Made by a program: the position numbers and the translations under genes
Shown here: positions 5,098-13,353 of the stretch, in pieces
Numbering within the stretch: the stretch's first letter is position 1
Layout: every line of letters starts with the position of its first letter
Source: Beijerinckiaceae bacterium
GTDB taxonomy: Bacteria > Pseudomonadota > Alphaproteobacteria > Rhizobiales > Beijerinckiaceae
DNA length: 64,000 nucleotides
NCBI GenBank assembly: GCA_030684835.1
Contig: JAUXWZ010000146.1
Span: 24,425-88,424 of the forward strand
Direction of reading: 5' to 3'
The notes under the pieces: generated by a model
Databases searched by the model: none
Seen by the model: the letters and a program-made list of their open reading frames with translations, nothing else
Told to the model about the DNA's origin: nothing

Positions 5098-5817
5098 TCA
5101 GATCGAACGCTGGTTGACCCGTTTTGAAAGCTGCGCAGCGCTTTCCTTGCGTTCCGAGTAACGATCAACGAGATAGTCCGCGCAATCGCGCGTCAGTAGC
5201 GTGAACTTCATAAGCTCCTCCATCACGTCCACGATGCGGTCGTAATAGGCGGATGGTTTCATGCGACCGTGCTCATCAAATTCCATGAAGGCTTTTGCGA
5301 CGGAGGACTGATTGGGAATCGTAATCAGGCGCATCCATCTCCCAAGCACGCGAAGCTGGTTCACTGCGTTGAACGATTGCGAACCGCCGCTCACCTGCAT
5401 GACAGCAAGCGTCTTTCCCTGCGTTGGCCTTACGGCGCCAAGCGTAAGCGGGATCCAGTCAATCTGAGCCTTCATAACGCCGGTCATCGCGCCGTGGCGT
5501 TCGGGCGAGCACCAGACCATGCCTTCGCACCATGTGACGAGATCGCGCAATTCGCGCACTTTTGCATGATCTTCGCCCGCGTCATCGGGCAGCGGGAGGC
5601 CCGACGGATCGAACGTGCGCGTTTGCGCCCCCAGTTTGCGCAGGATGCGCGCGGCTTCTTCGTTCGCAAGGCGGCTGAAGGAGCGCTTGCGCAGCGAACC
5701 GTGCAGCAACAGAATGCGCGGCGCGTGCGATGCCCTTGCAGGCGCGAAAAGCTTTTCCGCGTCTGTTGTTTTGAAACACGCGTCGTCAATGTTTGAGGCG
5801 ACTGCCGATTCATCCAA
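5098..5817 (-). CDS. arsH: Arsenical resistance flavoprotein ArsH
   Basis: [38 protein letters not shown] and [21 protein letters not shown] are ArsH signatures. The likely start is TTG 5817, overlapping the arsC stop. Confidence 0.95.
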
Positions 5818-6232
5818 CGCGACGGCCCTCCGCATCTATCAGCGGCGAGCCATCTTCCTTGTTGAAGGGGCCGGGCGGAAGGCGATCAAGCAGATCGAGC
5901 GCCATGTCGCTCGGCCTGCAAAGGCGTACGCCCTTTGGCGTGCAGACGATGGGCCGATTGACGAGAATGGGATGTTCAACCATCGCCGCGAGCAAGGCTT
6001 CGTCGTCCACGTCGGGATCGGTGAGGCCCATTTCTGCGGCGGGCGATTTGCTGACTCGCAGCGCCTCGCGTGGCGTCAGTCCCGCAGCGGCGAACAATCC
6101 CAGAAGTTGCGAACGCGTCCAGCCGGTCTTGAGATATTCAATGACGGTTGGCCTGTAACCTGCGGCCTCAAGGATTGCCAGCGTGTTGCGTGACGTTCCG
6201 CAATCGGGGTTGTGATGGATGACGACGTTCAT
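5810..6232 (-). CDS. arsC: Arsenate reductase, glutaredoxin-coupled family
   Basis: HNPDCGTSR active site, and [10 protein letters not shown]...GVRLCRPS. Confidence 0.96.
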
Positions 6233-7305
6233 CTGACTGTCTCCAGCTTGCGCTTGTGATCCTCATCGGCCGACGCACGACGTTTCACTGCGCCGCCATT
6301 TTCGTACCAGCCCTTGCTGCGATTAACGATCATCACGAGAGCCAGCATCAACGGCACTTCGATCAGCACGCCTACAACAGTTGCGAGCGCCGCCCCGGAA
6401 TTGACGCCGAACAAACTTATTGCGACTGCAACGGCCAGCTCGAAAAAGTTTGACGCTCCGATCAGCGCCGAAGGCCCGGCGATGCAATGCGCTTCGCCCG
6501 TGACGCGATTGAGCACGTAGGCCAAGCCGAAGATGAAAACCGTCTGAATGAAGATGGGCACGGCAAGCAGCACGATGATGAGCGGCTGGTCGAGAATTTG
6601 CCCGCCCTGAAATGCGAATAGCAGGATAACCGTCGCCAGCAGGGCGGTTATGGACAATGGCTGCACTGCGTTGCTGAATGCCGCAAGCCTGGCTCCGCCG
6701 CCAAGCCATGCGCGCAACGCCTGCGCCACGAAGACCGGCGCGACGATGAACAGCGCAACGGAGATCAGCAGCGTCTCCCACGGCACGATGATCGCCGACA
6801 CGCCAAGCAAGAGCGCTACGATGGGCGCGAAGGCGAACACCATGACGGCGTCATTCAGCGCGACCTGACTAAGTGTAAACGGCGGATCGCCGCGTGACAG
6901 GTTCGACCAAACGAACACCATCGCCGTGCAAGGCGCTGCGCCGAGCAGGATAAGGCCTGCGATGTAGCTGTTGATCTGGTCTTCCGGCAGCAGCGGACGA
7001 AACAGCCAGCCGATGAAGAACCAGCCCAGCACCGCCATTGAGAACGGCTTCACGGCCCAATTGGCGAAAAGCGTGATGCTGATGCCGCGCCAGTGTTCGC
7101 CCACCCTGAGCATGGCGGCAAAGTCGATCTTCATCAGCATGGGAATGATCATGAGCCAGATCAGCACGGCGACTGGCAGATTGACCTTGGCAATTTCTGC
7201 GGCGCTGACCAGCTGGAAAAAGCCAGGCATTAAATGACCGAGCGCAATGCCCACGATGATGCAGAGAAAGACCCAGACGGTGAGATATCGTTCAAACGTC
7301 GACAT
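6229..7305 (-). CDS. acr3: Acr3-family arsenite efflux permease
   Basis: About 10 hydrophobic segments with FERYLTVWV, NWAVKPFSM, GAAPCTAMVFVWS, GASNFFELAVAVA and GVLIEVP. Confidence 0.96.
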   Translation of the reverse strand: MSTFERYLTVWVFLCIIVGIALGHLMPGFFQLVSAAEIAKVNLPVAVLIWLMIIPMLMKIDFAAMLRVGEHWRGISITLFANWAVKPFSMAVLGWFFIGWLFRPLLPEDQINSYIAGLILLGAAPCTAMVFVWSNLSRGDPPFTLSQVALNDAVMVFAFAPIVALLLGVSAIIVPWETLLISVALFIVAPVFVAQALRAWLGGGARLAAFSNAVQPLSITALLATVILLFAFQGGQILDQPLIIVLLAVPIFIQTVFIFGLAYVLNRVTGEAHCIAGPSALIGASNFFELAVAVAISLFGVNSGAALATVVGVLIEVPLMLALVMIVNRSKGWYENGGAVKRRASADEDHKRKLETVR

Positions 7306-7306
7306 T

Positions 7307-7831
7307 TTACTGGTTTCCCGCCTTGTCTGTCGCGCCGTCCATGCGTCCGATGTCGCGCAGCTTTGCGCCCAGCGATAGTTTGTCGACGCTTCGGATTGGC
7401 AGGTTCACAAAGGCGCCGATGCGATTGCGGAGGTAGCGGAAAGCGTTATTGAACGCCGCCTGCTTTTCGATGTCGGTTCCTTGCTCCGCCGCCGGGTCCG
7501 GGATGCCCCAATGCGCCGTCATCGGCTGGCCGGGCCAAAAGGGACAGGCTTCGCCAGCGGCGCTGTCGCAAACAGTGAAGACAAAATCCATCACGGGCGC
7601 GTCAGGCGTGGCGAATTCTTCCCAGCTTTTGGAGCGCATATCGCTCGCCGGGTAGCCAAACGCTTCAAGCGTGCTGAGCGAAAATGGGTTGACCGTCCCC
7701 TTAGGCTGGCTACCGGCGGAAAACGCCCGAAATTTTCCCGCGCCATCCTTGCGCAAAATGCCTTCGGCCATGATTGAGCGGGCGGTGTTGCCCGTGCACA
7801 GGAACAGGACATTGTAGATCGACTCGCTCAT
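7307..7831 (-). CDS. arsC: Arsenate reductase, thioredoxin-coupled LMW-PTPase fold
   Basis: NVLFLCTGNTARS P-loop, TVCDSAAGEACP resolving Cys pair and HWGIPDP. ATG 7831 overlaps the arsR stop (ATGA). Confidence 0.92.
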   Translation of the reverse strand: MSESIYNVLFLCTGNTARSIMAEGILRKDGAGKFRAFSAGSQPKGTVNPFSLSTLEAFGYPASDMRSKSWEEFATPDAPVMDFVFTVCDSAAGEACPFWPGQPMTAHWGIPDPAAEQGTDIEKQAAFNNAFRYLRNRIGAFVNLPIRSVDKLSLGAKLRDIGRMDGATDKAGNQ

Positions 7832-8178
7832 GGGGAAGCTCCGGGGGGACAGCAGGATGTGAGATCGGCGATGAGCGGCGCGCAGATTTCCGATCTGCCG
7901 CCACAGCAATCCTTTAGGAGGAAGGTGACGACTTCGCGCAGACGCGCGAGGTCCGCGCGGTAAATGATAGAGCGGCTGCGCCGCTCGCCGCGCACGAGGC
8001 CGGCCCTCGCGAGAACGGCGAGATGCGCCGACATGGTGTTTTGCGGAATGGCGATAAGGCGCGCCAATTCGCCGGCCGGGACGCCGTCGGGCTCATGCTG
8101 CACGAGCGCGCGAAAGGTCTCCATCCGCGTCGTCTGGGCGAGGGCGGTCAGGGCAGTGATGGCGTCTGTCGTATCCAT
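7828..8178 (-). CDS. arsR: ArsR/SmtB repressor with C-terminal vicinal cysteines
   Basis: ALAQTTRMETFRAL, HTH region QNTMSAHLAVLARAGLV, and C-terminal DCCGGRSEIC As(III) site. First gene of the ars operon. Confidence 0.93.
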   Translation of the reverse strand: MDTTDAITALTALAQTTRMETFRALVQHEPDGVPAGELARLIAIPQNTMSAHLAVLARAGLVRGERRSRSIIYRADLARLREVVTFLLKDCCGGRSEICAPLIADLTSCCPPGASP

Positions 8179-8253: not shown

Positions 8254-10104
8254 CTACGCGTCCATCGTTTCCAACTCGGCGATCATGCCCTCGATCATGC
8301 CAAGCCCGATCTGCCAGAAGCCCGGATCGCGCGCGTCGAGACCGAAGGGCTTCAGCAGTTCGGTGTAGTGCTGCGAGCCGCCCGCAGAGAGCAGCGCGAA
8401 GTACTTGTCCTGGAAGCCGCCCGCAGCGTTCTGATAGACGCCATAAAGGGAGTTCACCAGGCAATCGCCGAATGCGTAGGCGTAAACGTAGAAAGGCGAA
8501 TGAACGAAGTGCGGAATGTAGGCCCAGTAGGATTCATAGCCGGGCCCGAAGCGAATGGCGGGTCCGAGGCTTTCAGCCTGCACGCTCATCCACAATTCCG
8601 AAATCTGTTCTGACGTGAGCTCGCCCTCGCGGCGGCTCGTGTGCAGCTTGCGTTCGAAGGAGTAGAACGCGATCTGCCGCACCACGGTGTTCAGCATGTC
8701 CTCCACTTTCGCCGCGAGCATCGTGCGGCGCTGCGAGGCGTTGCTTGTGTTGGCGAGCAGGGAGCGGAAGGTCAGCATCTCGCCGAACACGGACGCGGTT
8801 TCGGCAAGCGTCAGGGGCGTGGGCGCCATCAGCGCGCCGTTTGGCGCTGCAAGCACCTGATGCACGCCGTGACCCAACTCGTGGGCCAGCGTCATCACAT
8901 CGCGCGTTTTGCCTTGATAATTCACCAGCACATACGGATGCGCGGACGGAACCGTTGGATGCGCAAAGGCGCCGGGCGCCTTGCCGGGACGCACAGGCGC
9001 GTCGATCCAGCTGTCGTCAAAGAAACGCTTGGCGATGTCTGCAAGCCGAGGCGAGAATTGACCATACGCTGTCAGGACAAGATCGCGCGCTTCGTTCCAT
9101 TGGTAAACGCGCGTTGGCGCGTTCGGCAGCGGCGCGTTGCGGTTCCAGTAATCCAGAACATCGCGATCAAACCATTTTGCTTTGAGTTTATAATAGCGAT
9201 GCGACAGGCGCGGATAGGCGTCGCGCACAGCGTCAACCAGCGCATCGACGACTTCACGCTCGACGCGGTTCGACAGATGGCGTGAATCTGCGACGTCATC
9301 GAAGCCGCGCCAGCGGTCTGAGATTTCCTTGTCCTTGGCGAGCGTGTTTGTGATGAGCGCGAACGTGCGCAGGTTCTTTGACAACGTGGCGCCAAGCGCT
9401 TCGGCCGCAGCCTTGCGCACGTCCTCAGTCGGGTCCTGCATGAGGTTGAGGGTCGGCTCTAGCGTCAGCTCGCGGCCGCTCACATCAAAGCGCATGGCGG
9501 AGATGGTTTCGTCGAACAGACGATTCCATGCGCTGCGTCCGGTTACTGATTTTTCGTGGAACAATTGCTCCAGCTTGTCATCGAGCTGGTAGGGTTTCTC
9601 GCGGCGCACATCTTCGATCCAGGGACGGTAGCGCGCGAGCGGGCCCGCGCTCATCGCCTTGTCGAGCGCTGCGTCGTCGATGCGATTGAGCTCCAGCGTG
9701 AAGAACAGGAGGTCAGAGGAGGCGTTCGTCACGCGCTCCTGTGCGTCGCCATAGAATTTGGCGCGATGGGGATCGGTCGTATCGCCCGAATAGATCAGGC
9801 CGGCGTAGGACATGATGCGGCCAAGGAGATCCTCCAGCGCTTCATAATCCTTCACCGCCTCAGTAAGCTTTTCGCTCGCGTTCGGGCCGGTCGTGATGTC
9901 GGCCAGCTTGCCCCGCCATTTTTCCGCAAAGGCGCGGCACTCGGTTTCTCCCCGCGCGAGATCGCTCGCATAGGCGGGCGAATCCATCGCCGGGTATAGG
10001 TCTGCGAGGTTCCATTCCGGCAATTGGCCCAGATCAGCCGAAGCCCGCGCCGCCGCCTCTGCCGGAGCGAAGGCCGAATGAGTCGAAAACGCCTTGAGGG
10101 TCAT
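8254..10104 (-). CDS. pepF: Oligoendopeptidase F (M3B)
   Basis: LPEWNLADLY N-terminus, TLAHELGHGVH zinc motif, LAETASVFGE and HSPFYVYAYAFG. Confidence 0.93.
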   Translation of the reverse strand: MTLKAFSTHSAFAPAEAAARASADLGQLPEWNLADLYPAMDSPAYASDLARGETECRAFAEKWRGKLADITTGPNASEKLTEAVKDYEALEDLLGRIMSYAGLIYSGDTTDPHRAKFYGDAQERVTNASSDLLFFTLELNRIDDAALDKAMSAGPLARYRPWIEDVRREKPYQLDDKLEQLFHEKSVTGRSAWNRLFDETISAMRFDVSGRELTLEPTLNLMQDPTEDVRKAAAEALGATLSKNLRTFALITNTLAKDKEISDRWRGFDDVADSRHLSNRVEREVVDALVDAVRDAYPRLSHRYYKLKAKWFDRDVLDYWNRNAPLPNAPTRVYQWNEARDLVLTAYGQFSPRLADIAKRFFDDSWIDAPVRPGKAPGAFAHPTVPSAHPYVLVNYQGKTRDVMTLAHELGHGVHQVLAAPNGALMAPTPLTLAETASVFGEMLTFRSLLANTSNASQRRTMLAAKVEDMLNTVVRQIAFYSFERKLHTSRREGELTSEQISELWMSVQAESLGPAIRFGPGYESYWAYIPHFVHSPFYVYAYAFGDCLVNSLYGVYQNAAGGFQDKYFALLSAGGSQHYTELLKPFGLDARDPGFWQIGLGMIEGMIAELETMDA

Positions 10105-10203
10105 GAGTGAACCGTCGTCTGGCCGGAGGAATGTGTCTATGCGGATAACGCGAGGGGCGCCGATTTGGCAAGGCGCGCGAGGGTCGCAGGAGCGCTAGGC
10201 GAA

Positions 10204-10227
10204 TTATAGTTATCGTGATAAGAATAA
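10204..10227. promoter_or_regulatory. AT-rich imperfect palindrome, candidate MarR operator
   Basis: TTATagTTATC-gt-GATAAgaATAA lies about 50 nt upstream of the SsuA/THI5-fold gene, which is followed by a marR gene. Confidence 0.5.
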
Positions 10228-10279
10228 CCCGTTGAAGGCCGAAGATAGCCAGAGCTACACGGCGAAAGGGGAGGTTCGA

Positions 10280-11176
10280 ATGGCGAAATTCATTGTGAAC
10301 ACGCATGGGCGCCTGCAGGAATGGATCGCCCACGAAAAGGGCTATTTCGTCGAGGAAGGCCTCGACTACGAACTGACCCAGCACGGGTTGCTGACGAAGG
10401 CCGCGCCGGAAACATTCAAGCCGGGCGCAAACATCGTTTCCGATAATCTGACGGGCGCTTACCAGACCTACGAACAGGGCCGCGAGGCCTCAATCTCCTG
10501 CGCCTGCCATTGGACAGTGAACATGGCGGCCTCCGCCAGCCATGGCCGCCTCTGGGGTGAAGCCTACACGGTGTCGCCCTGCGGCATTTTCGTTCCCGAA
10601 TCATCGACCATCCAGAAGCCCGAAGACCTTGCGGGCGTCGATGTTCATGTCGGCTACCAGTCGGGCAGCCATTACACGACGATTCAGGCGCTTGAACAAT
10701 TCATGCCTGCCGACAGCGTCAAGCTGAAGTTCGGCGGCGGGCCGTCGGATCGCGTCGACCAATTGCTCAACGGGATCGCCCCTGCGGCCACCGTGTTCGG
10801 CATGCAATATTACATCATGGAGCAACTGGGTTTCCGAAAGATCCTTGATTGCACTTTCATGATCGCGGCCATGGTGCCGCCGGACGTTGATCTGGGCGAC
10901 GTCCGCAAATACTTCAACGCGCTGCGCAAGGCGCAGGCGGACATCGACCGCATGCATCAGTCTTTCACGCATTACTATCTCAACGAGCTTCCCGAACGGC
11001 ACGCAAAGCTGGTGGACGTGCGCCGGTTCGGGCCCGGTGAGCGCATCGTTTTTGAGCCCTATACGCGCGAGATGTACGAGGCCACGAAGGAATGGGTTGA
11101 GGAGCGCGATATCTTCCCGGCAGAGAAGGTGGCGCCGACCGACTATGAACAGGCCGTCGCCTTCGCCGCCGAATAA
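10280..11176 (+). CDS. SsuA/NMT1/THI5-like (PBP type II fold) protein without a signal peptide
   Basis: WIAHEKGYFVEEGLDYEL and IQKPEDLAG...GYQSGSHY match the family pattern. RBS GGGGAGG precedes ATG 10280. There is no hydrophobic N-terminal segment, and a CACHW motif is present. Confidence 0.7.
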   Translation: MAKFIVNTHGRLQEWIAHEKGYFVEEGLDYELTQHGLLTKAAPETFKPGANIVSDNLTGAYQTYEQGREASISCACHWTVNMAASASHGRLWGEAYTVSPCGIFVPESSTIQKPEDLAGVDVHVGYQSGSHYTTIQALEQFMPADSVKLKFGGGPSDRVDQLLNGIAPAATVFGMQYYIMEQLGFRKILDCTFMIAAMVPPDVDLGDVRKYFNALRKAQADIDRMHQSFTHYYLNELPERHAKLVDVRRFGPGERIVFEPYTREMYEATKEWVEERDIFPAEKVAPTDYEQAVAFAAE

Positions 11177-11252
11177 CGAATCACGAATCACGCTTTGTGA
11201 TTTTGCCGGGCGCGCCGTTTGATCTGGTGCGCCCTTGCTGTTCAAATGACCC

Positions 11253-11798
11253 ATGAGCAAAGAGATGCCGACGTCCGCCCGGCCGGCGCGTGACCCTGCG
11301 GTCAAGAGTGTGGCGAACAGCGCGCCGCTGGCGCCCGAGATGCGCGGACCCACCGCCCGAGTGGGGCATCTGCTCCGGCGGGCCTATCAACTGGCGCTTG
11401 AGAACTCGGCCCGGGGATTCGCCGATCTTGATCTGACGCCCCGTCAGGCGGCGGCGGTCTGGGAGATTCACGTTCGGGGTTCGTTATCGCAGCGTGAACT
11501 GGGTGAGGCCATTGGCATGGACGCGCCCAATGTCCACGGACTCGTCACGCGACTCCTCAAGCGCGGCGCTGTCTCCCGGCAGACCGATTGCGTCGATCCG
11601 CGCCGCAAATTGCTGAGCCTGACGCTCGAGGGCGCGTCGCTGGCGGCCGTCCTGCCGGAACGGGCGCGGTTGTCCGAGGAAGCGACGCTGGCGGGGCTGT
11701 CTGCGAACGACCGCGCGTCCCTCGTCAAATTGCTTGAGTCTATGATTGAACCTGAGGCCTGCGCACCCAGAAGAAAACTTAGGAAGCGCAAGGCTTAA
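11253..11798 (+). CDS. MarR family transcriptional regulator
   Basis: LDLTPRQAAAVWEI, SQRELGEAIGMDAPNVHGLVTRL and DPRRKLLSLTLEG winged helix. Confidence 0.93.
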   Translation: MSKEMPTSARPARDPAVKSVANSAPLAPEMRGPTARVGHLLRRAYQLALENSARGFADLDLTPRQAAAVWEIHVRGSLSQRELGEAIGMDAPNVHGLVTRLLKRGAVSRQTDCVDPRRKLLSLTLEGASLAAVLPERARLSEEATLAGLSANDRASLVKLLESMIEPEACAPRRKLRKRKA

Positions 11799-11810
11799 CG
11801 GCTCATTTAC
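11795..11810. promoter_or_regulatory. CtrA box-like site upstream of the sigma54 activator
   Basis: TTAA-cggctca-TTTAC, one mismatch to TTAA-N7-TTAAC. Confidence 0.6.
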
Positions 11811-11865
11811 CTAGTCTCGCCACATTGTCCCAAGCGCGCCGGCCATGTGGCGGCATGGGACCACA

Positions 11866-13353
<1,488 letters not shown>

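Follow-up and report, generated by a model that had tools for sequence, protein, structure and literature searches.

Can a protein built like the binding subunit of a sulfonate or taurine transporter, yet made without an export signal, be an enzyme? The question is raised by a gene, here called X, at positions 10280-11176 (plus strand) of a 64,000-nucleotide stretch of Beijerinckiaceae bacterium DNA (contig JAUXWZ010000146.1; the whole stretch is referred to below as the window). X encodes a leaderless protein of 298 amino acids (aa), a member of an uncharacterised family with the predicted periplasmic-binding-protein (PBP) type II fold of the SsuA/TauA/THI5/DszB kind, and is followed by marR (11253-11798, plus strand), which encodes a 181-aa winged-helix regulator of the MarR family. 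An earlier note, made from the letters alone, had suggested that X may be a catabolic or detoxification enzyme under MarR control rather than a transporter part, and had named three findings that would speak against this: an upstream in-frame start giving a signal peptide, homologues linked to ATP-binding cassette (ABC) permeases, and a CACHW motif that is unconserved or exposed at the surface. None of the three came true, and the enzyme proposal is supported. The best-supported reading, which we hold with moderate confidence, is that X is an enzyme of aromatic-acid metabolism; we infer both the catalysis and the substrate class.

X is a leaderless protein without a transporter partner

The ATG of X stands 5 nt after a Shine-Dalgarno sequence, GGGGAGG, read from the sequence (10268-10274, plus strand). 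The sole in-frame extension starts at a TTG at 10232 and adds MKAEDSQSYTAKGEVR, 16 hydrophilic residues with no hydrophobic core, twin-arginine motif or lipobox. More than 80 homologues begin at a common M-x-x-F-x-x-x-x-H-G-R-L-Q-E-W, and strand 1 begins at residue 4 in the AlphaFold2 (AF2) model of X. Because the extension is hydrophilic, the start is common to the homologues and the model enters its first strand at once, X has no Sec, Tat or lipoprotein signal; its N-terminus, MAKFIVNTHGRLQEW, shows neither the Sec/Tat signal peptide nor the lipobox of NitT/TauT binding proteins. X is a cytoplasmic, leaderless protein. The description of X as a 298-aa protein of SsuA/NMT1 pattern without a signal peptide thus agrees with the open reading frame (ORF), the Shine-Dalgarno sequence, the homologue starts and the model, and no in-frame upstream start yields a signal peptide.

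Nor was a transporter partner found. The genome has 53 matches to the permease family BPD_transp_1, of which none lies on the 89-kb contig carrying X (C60), and none of the ORFs at 6-16 kb of the window encodes an ABC component, which bears out the absence of a permease or ATPase near X. For the relatives, 77 loci were surveyed, and the Pfam families of the 149 genes next to X were counted. A NitT/TauT permease did not recur among them, and BPD_transp_1 fell outside the 25 most frequent families both there and among 128 neighbours in clade A (the clade of the window's X, described below). Nor was a NitT/TauT permease recurrent within three genes on either side of X in 26 clade-A loci. The commonest immediate neighbours were GntR with FCD (16), followed by MarR, MFS and Peripla_BP_6 (5 each). 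The linkage to ABC permeases expected of transporter subunits thus did not recur in the 77 loci, and X is not a transport component.

Predicted fold and conserved residues of X

Family models match X weakly. Pfam NMT1 (PF09084) scored 22.8 bits (gathering score 20.5) over residues 16-35 only, corresponding to profile positions 9-28 of 216. The TauA model TIGR01729 gave 20 bits against a cut-off of 304, NF008553 gave 11 bits against a cut-off of 490, and no NCBIfam model besides TauA matched X at E < 1. Because searches of the Protein Data Bank (PDB) with the single protein and with a profile returned only weak SsuA/TauA matches, X has no solved relative; one profile match was significant (2x26, E 5e-4, residues 101-189). 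The AF2 model, built with 49 homologues, had a predicted local distance difference test (pLDDT) score of 94 and a predicted template modelling (pTM) score of 0.91. Its Foldseek matches were TauA, SsuA, ThiY, THI5, DszB, PqqT and MqnA-type proteins at template modelling (TM) scores of 0.55-0.71 (THI5 from 0.53) and 11-18% identity. The model shows the two lobes of a PBP type II protein and superposes on the TauA/SsuA structures 6ssy, 3ksx and 3ksj at TM 0.69-0.71. On the basis of this model, we are confident that X has the SsuA/TauA/THI5/DszB-type fold.

Conservation was computed on 81 sequences from eight or more phyla over 298 positions, 78 of which were conserved at 95% or more. The polar residues H9, R11, C76, H77, W78, Y96, S128, S130, H131, R158, E254 and R255 were invariant in all 81 sequences. 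The CACHW motif pointed out in the earlier note (C74-A75-C76-H77-W78, codons at 10499-10513, plus strand) stood in part: C76-H77-W78 is invariant in 81/81, whereas the first cysteine is variable, position 74 being C in 59 sequences, S in 17, A in 3 and G in 2. Since C74 varies, the CxC is not a metal-binding pair and, judged by the alignment, the true motif is A-C-H-W-T-V-N. X has cysteines at 74, 76, 101 and 191, with no adjacent pair.

In the AF2 secondary structure, every invariant polar residue is placed either where a strand gives way to a helix or on a hinge strand. H9-G-R11 lies between strand 1 and helix 1, and C76-H77-W78 falls at the end of strand 3 (residues 73-76) and the start of helix 3 (residues 77-85). 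S128-G-S-H131 opens the first helix of lobe 2 and R158 opens another helix, while Y96, R186 and D190 are located on the two hinge strands. Such strand/helix junctions border the cleft between the lobes in PBP type II proteins. With its core conserved and located at a junction of this kind, the motif probably lines the cleft rather than being exposed at the surface.

Distribution of the X family

The family search yielded at least 8000 clusters at 90% identity, whose members are all about 290-300 aa long and leaderless; at 50% identity and E <= 1e-30 there were only 111 representatives. The family occurs in at least 565 GTDB species of eight or more phyla, including Alpha- and Gammaproteobacteria, Acidobacteriota, Actinomycetota, Eremiobacterota (Vulcanimicrobiota), Binatota and Myxococcota. 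Within the window's order, X was present in 3 of 151 genomes, and it was absent from three other genera sampled in the window's family. This patchy occurrence together with the high conservation is consistent with an accessory gene that moves horizontally and is strongly constrained. A tblastn search against plasmids gave matches of only 25-29% identity, named 'ABC transporter substrate-binding protein', and one against phages gave no match. A literature search found no characterised member. In ten diverse clusters checked, relatives were named either 'NitT/TauT substrate-binding protein', by JGI/IMG automatic annotation, or 'hypothetical'.

A maximum-likelihood tree of the sampled family (81 rows) separated two clades, A with 29 rows and B with 52. 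Clade A contains the window's X, sequences from Granulosicoccaceae, Acetobacteraceae, Actinomycetota and Eremiobacterota, and a paralogue from the same genome (X2, 47% identical); members of clade B are 52-54% identical to the window's X. Only 3 alignment positions discriminate between the clades, which makes one chemistry probable across the family. The clades differ in their regulators, which flank X in 21 of the 77 loci (GntR-FCD in 16, MarR in 5). GntR-FCD is confined to clade B and typically lies 38 bp upstream of X on the same strand. MarR is confined to clade A, where it is adjacent to X in 5 of 26 loci, is the sole recurrent gene within three genes of X, and occurs in two separate subclades, one formed by the window, L006 and L004 and the other by a Sphingomonadales pair (L027 and L078).

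The paralogue X2 (C170:5595-6500, minus strand; locus L089), whose gene diverges from bioB-bioF, keeps the SCACHW, SGSHY and GERV motifs. After X2 come split ChrA-like genes, a gene for a metallo-beta-lactamase-rhodanese fusion (persulfide-dioxygenase-like) and two YeeE/YedE-like genes; this sulfur gene context was not reproduced around an X2-type orthologue (P0125). Separately, a contig labelled as a Klebsiella pneumoniae metagenome-assembled genome (CAMDRJ010000043.1, L009) carries an X with 79% identity to that of the window, and this X falls within the Hyphomicrobiales sequences of the tree; the contig is probably mis-binned.

Gene neighbourhoods of X

The partners of X in tight operons are, to judge by their sequence families, enzymes of phenolic-acid breakdown. 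In an acidobacterial locus (L040), X is preceded by MFS, reductive-dehalogenase-like, UbiD (VdcC-like) and HpaB-type hydroxylase genes and followed by one for a LigB-type dioxygenase; in L029, the order is GntR, X and LigB, with X and LigB overlapping by 1 nt. A third locus (L023) runs Rieske (LigXa-like), LigB, Rieske, X, SnoaL, Rieske and amidohydrolase, and two others (L059 and L049) have UbiD, a small subunit, X and CMD. In L032, X stands between genes for an aldehyde dehydrogenase and a TRAP transporter, and LigI-like and other amidohydrolases are also present. Two clade-A loci belong here as well. In one (L018), genes for a flavin adenine dinucleotide (FAD) aromatic hydroxylase and for a TRAP system adjoin X, and in the other (L114), whose X is 75% identical to that of the window, a tannase/feruloyl-esterase-family gene lies 28 nt 5' of X.

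The two acidobacterial operons (L040:1246-7161 and L029:7194-13436) bring together a reductive-dehalogenase-like cytoplasmic protein (TIGR02486, 87 bits), UbiD, the HpaB-type protein, X and an atypical 336-aa LigB-family dioxygenase. From these gene families, the operons look like a pathway for halogenated hydroxybenzoates. In a Granulosicoccaceae locus (L002:4524-7736), a 1070-aa protein encoded beside X fuses a 4Fe-4S dicluster, a DmmA-like N-terminal part and a 2Fe-2S ferredoxin; this architecture is unusual, and no catalytic domain was recognised in its first 550 residues.

MarR and a candidate operator upstream of X

The product of the gene downstream of X matched Pfam MarR (PF01047) at 4.5e-10 and 39.7 bits (gathering score 24.6) and MarR_2 (PF12802) at 1.5e-9 and 38.3 bits (gathering score 27), which confirmed the marR assignment of the earlier note. 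The protein is extended by about 35 aa at its N-terminus and ends in a basic tail. The best NCBIfam matches of this MarR were the Saro_0803 family (55.7 bits, cut-off 200) and HpaR (28.4 bits); because the scores remain far below every equivalog cut-off, it can be assigned to the MarR superfamily only. Orthologues are encoded directly 3' of X in L006 (64% identity), L004 (48%), L027 (36%) and L078 (40%). The cysteines of MarR are not conserved among these orthologues, which argues for ligand sensing over thiol-oxidation sensing.

The palindrome that had been reported upstream of X was read at 10204-10227 (no strand) as an imperfect 24-nt sequence, TTATAGTTATCGTGATAAGAATAA, with a core 20-mer at 10206-10225. 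It is AT-rich, with the layout TTAT-ag-TTATC-gt-GATAA-ga-ATAA and 9/11 matches per arm, and is situated in the 175-nt divergent spacer between pepF and X, 53-76 nt 5' of the X start codon. A perfect 20-bp palindrome in L004 (ATAGTTATGATCATAACTAT) aligns with it, as do the sites in L006 (ATAGTTTCTGTGATAAGTAT), L027 (AAAGTTATGATCATTATATA) and L078 (AAGGTTGTGATAATAACCTT); the MarR-linked loci with the palindrome belong to two orders. A TTGACA-N17 promoter-like element is present in L004, L027 and L078, its spacer and -10 region overlapping the palindrome.

A simple pattern search for the operator in the window was uninformative by itself. A weight matrix was then built from ten half-sites; since the positive loci had trained it, what it tells us lies in the negative loci and in how unique the site is. 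Upstream of X, the matrix scored 21.7-32.6 in all five MarR-linked loci; of 15 loci lacking MarR, 14 scored 6.3 or less. Across the genome of 4.9 Mb, the window's palindrome was the single top site (26.2), the next site scored 21.5 and the maximum in shuffled genomes was 18-21. No further operator site stood above the shuffle level genome-wide, and no wider regulon was evident. On this comparison of sequences, the palindrome is a candidate MarR operator. The exceptional fifteenth locus, from Candidatus Lustribacter of the Eremiobacterota (L024:8001-200 upstream), has an AT-rich palindrome, ATTATTATCATAATAAAATT, upstream of X that scored 23.0, with no adjacent MarR gene.

Between X and marR lies a terminator-like hairpin (11208-11234, plus strand) of 10 pairs, 8 of them G-C, followed by TTGCTGTT. 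As read from the sequence, it could be a partial terminator, and co-transcription of X and marR is uncertain.

X and marR form an insertion at a conserved gene junction

The gene pepF, encoding an M3 oligoendopeptidase F (8254-10104, minus strand, divergent from X), was found in 31/31 genomes of the family. In all eight of the X-less same-family genomes examined, pepF and a gene for an NtrC-like response regulator are direct divergent neighbours, with an L,D-transpeptidase gene next. X and marR separate pepF from the ntrC-like gene in L006 as well as in the window. Because pepF and the ntrC-like gene adjoin each other in 8/8 relatives, the segment holding the operator, X and marR (10105-11844, between the pepF start at 10104 and the ntrC-like start at 11845) is a 1.7-kb insertion. 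Its GC content gave no foreign signature. The X relatives in L112 and L115 (74-82% identity) retain the pepF-X junction without marR, so that marR is facultative. Accordingly, the two-gene MarR cassette of the earlier note held as far as the insertion into a conserved junction and a palindrome that tracks MarR in two orders are concerned, but the MarR link is not a fixed part of it, being present in 5 of 26 clade-A loci.

The junction itself appears to be an insertion hotspot. Another same-family genome (G158) has a different 1.9-kb insertion there (L104:2400-4240); the three paralogues encoded in it are small proteins (about 90-118 aa), each with a start resembling a signal peptide.

Proposed function and alternative explanations

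The invariant Cys/His cluster, the five or six invariant Arg/Lys residues and the lack of a recurring partner gene for cofactor supply fit a cofactor-independent acid-base enzyme that holds a carboxylated or otherwise anionic substrate. We propose that X is a cytoplasmic enzyme on the scaffold of a sulfonate/taurine-binding protein. In the inter-domain cleft, an anionic substrate, probably one with a carboxyl group, would be bound by R11, R158 and R255 along with R68, R186 and K187. Acid-base chemistry without an organic cofactor would fall to a group made up of C76-H77, H9, H131, Y96 and E254. The likeliest type of reaction would be a lyase or isomerase step on a metabolite of an aromatic-acid pathway. 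One candidate is an ipso-protonating decarboxylation, in the way that DszB removes sulfinate; the alternative candidate is a proton-shuttling (allylic) isomerisation of a ring-fission polycarboxylate. Bound to the palindrome (10204-10227), MarR would cover the X promoter, and it would be released once the substrate or a related phenolic acid accumulates; for this repression with ligand release we can only infer the course of events. X-marR would then be a self-contained inducible unit that arrived as a 1.7-kb two-gene cassette.

Several points weigh against this proposal. The context of clade A is almost uninformative, and the evidence for an aromatic pathway comes mainly from clade B plus one tannase locus. 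The source names of X relatives are all generic, with none tied to an assayed function. Ligand-binding proteins conserve cleft residues too, so that conservation alone is no proof of catalysis, and C76 and H77 are assigned to the inter-lobe cleft by the topology of the model. On the side of regulation, a search of the window's pepF/X spacer turned up no promoter matching the sigma-70 consensus, and the terminator-like hairpin separates X from marR.

A different possibility, which we consider unlikely, is that X is a non-catalytic cytoplasmic ligand-binding protein, that is, an anion sensor or buffer that modulates the adjacent regulator or sequesters a toxic metabolite. Its nearest structural neighbours, TauA and SsuA (TM 0.69), are true binders, a transcription factor is the only recurrent neighbour of X (21 of the 77 loci, in clade A only MarR), and there is a precedent in NasS, a leaderless sensor encoded beside its partner. 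Against this, 73% of the loci have no adjacent regulator. MarR and GntR-FCD are unrelated proteins that each bind ligands themselves, and an interface of X conserved with both is improbable. Furthermore, X is translationally coupled to, or embedded among, enzymes in L029, L040, L023 and L114, and an invariant Cys-His with two further invariant histidines is more typical of catalysis than of anion binding.

Less probable still is an organosulfur enzyme, in which a DszB-like desulfinase or desulfonase with C76 as the key residue releases sulfite from a possibly aromatic sulfinate or sulfonate. The best sequence and structure matches of X are indeed sulfonate and taurine binders, and DszB, a Cys/His/Arg desulfinase, is among the Foldseek matches (TM 0.56-0.59). 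Some neighbourhoods agree with sulfur chemistry: a TauD-family dioxygenase gene lies 180 nt 3' in L001 and L011, sulfatase genes are found 3 kb away in L004 and L112, X2 is near persulfide dioxygenase-rhodanese and YeeE-like genes, and 4-sulfomuconolactone hydrolase is the best match of the LigI-like protein encoded near X in L032 (251 bits, cut-off 500). However, such sulfur links recur in neither neighbour tally, and the X2-type orthologue is without sulfur genes nearby. Sequence similarity to DszB is nil (profile search E 2.2, 11 bits, 29 residues), and the invariant cysteine of X is at the strand-3 junction, unlike Cys27 of DszB, which we take to be in the strand-1 loop.

Two explanations can be set aside as highly improbable. 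That X is a NitT/TauT ABC binding protein with a miscalled start or unrecognised export would suit the fold and the JGI/IMG name of its relatives, but the start is fixed by the Shine-Dalgarno sequence, at least 80 homologues and the model, the sole extension consists of hydrophilic residues, no permease or ATPase partner is present on the contig or recurrent in the 77 loci, and the score of 20 bits against TIGR01729 compares with a cut-off of 304. That X is a THI5/NMT1 4-amino-5-hydroxymethyl-2-methylpyrimidine phosphate (HMP-P) synthase is, to a like degree, hard to credit: the NMT1 match just exceeds the gathering score and THI5 structures are among the Foldseek matches, but there is no full-length NMT1 match, no CC or CCCxC cluster and no thiamin context, the TM score to THI5 (0.53-0.62) is below that to SsuA/TauA, and a gene carried by no more than 3 of the order's 151 genomes does not behave like a biosynthetic one. 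Upstream of X, no Rfam match to a thiamin pyrophosphate (TPP) riboswitch was found; the genome has ThiC (607 bits).

Other features of the locus

A small inverted repeat, AATCACGAA/TTTGTGATT (11179-11202), lies directly 3' of the X stop codon and before the G+C-rich hairpin. The NtrC-like response regulator gene occupies 11845-13353, 3' of marR, and the L,D-transpeptidase gene comes after it in the window too. On the other side, pepF is adjoined by an arsenic-resistance cluster on the minus strand (5810-8178), whose genes were recognised from translations only: an ArsR-like regulator (7828-8178), an ArsC of the low-molecular-weight protein tyrosine phosphatase type (7307-7909), a gene for arsenite efflux by ACR3 (6229-7305) and another ArsC-like gene, of the glutaredoxin type (5810-6232).

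Comparison with known systems

If X is an enzyme, its annotation as a transporter subunit or hypothetical protein is wrong across soil, peat and marine bacteria, in thousands of genomes and metagenomes, and a widespread step in the metabolism of aromatic (lignin-, tannin- and pollutant-derived) acids lacks a name. It would also be the fourth or fifth independent recruitment of the binding-protein fold for catalysis. As a more tentative extension, X may found a new class of Cys/His enzymes that work without a cofactor on the scaffold of sulfonate-binding proteins. It would be a stand-alone lyase or isomerase, whether a decarboxylase, a desulfinase or an allylic isomerase, that handles an anionic intermediate common in phenolic-acid breakdown. 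It would have spread horizontally through at least eight phyla and been captured repeatedly by MarR or GntR-FCD, X-marR being a mobile self-regulated response cassette for aromatic acids. X is suited to experiment, since it is small, single-domain and soluble, with a confident model and few invariant residues to mutate. Furthermore, the matched repressor and unique operator offer a possible handle on the inducer or substrate, and a biosensor part.

With SsuA and TauA (6ssy, 3ksx and 2x26), X has in common the two-lobed PBP type II fold (TM 0.63-0.71) at 12-18% identity. In contrast to these proteins, X lacks a signal peptide as well as any permease or ATPase partner, and it carries an invariant Cys/His/Arg set that the binders are not known to share. 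DszB (2de2/2de3) also has this fold (TM 0.56-0.59) and is a cytoplasmic cofactor-free enzyme, whose chemistry relies on a Cys, a His and an Arg for protonating the ipso carbon and for binding the anion that leaves. Invariant residues of these types exist in X as C76, H9/H77/H131 and R11/R158/R255, and may lie in its cleft. DszB has 365 aa and is encoded in the dszABC operon, whereas X has 298 aa and neither dszA nor dszC is among its recurrent neighbours. X is not a member of the DszB family and at most works alike. The THI5/NMT1 HMP-P synthase (4h67 and 4esx) is likewise a leaderless enzyme of the same fold, to which the borderline NMT1 match of X corresponds. THI5 has a C-terminal CCCxC iron-binding motif, and we presume that its reactive residues are placed on the equivalent strand-3/helix-3 element.

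The NrtA-like NasS is a leaderless cytoplasmic nitrate sensor that has the same broad fold as X and is encoded next to its regulator, NasT. X is about 100 aa shorter, and its partners are DNA-binding MarR or GntR proteins, found in only 27% of the loci; no ANTAR/NasT partner or nitrate-assimilation gene was seen in the window or the neighbour tallies. A similar setting is that of 4,5-dihydroxyphthalate decarboxylase (Pht5/OphC) of phthalate pathways, which acts between a Rieske oxygenase and LigAB-type ring cleavage. This enzyme is cofactor-independent and presumably of SsuA/THI5-like fold; nothing on its fold was found in a literature search. The L023 neighbourhood of X, with its Rieske and LigB genes, resembles this pathway.

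As for regulation, MarR-type regulators of aromatic-acid genes (the Saro_0803 family and HpaR) are the best, though sub-threshold, NCBIfam matches of the window's MarR. The X-marR pair also follows a logic like that of PadR-PadC, in which one small-molecule-responsive repressor is combined with one stand-alone enzyme gene and a palindromic operator over its promoter, although X is unrelated to PadC and the window's MarR to PadR. What is new here is the division of the clades by regulator type, the insertion of X-marR, the operator that tracks MarR and the dispensable first cysteine of the motif.

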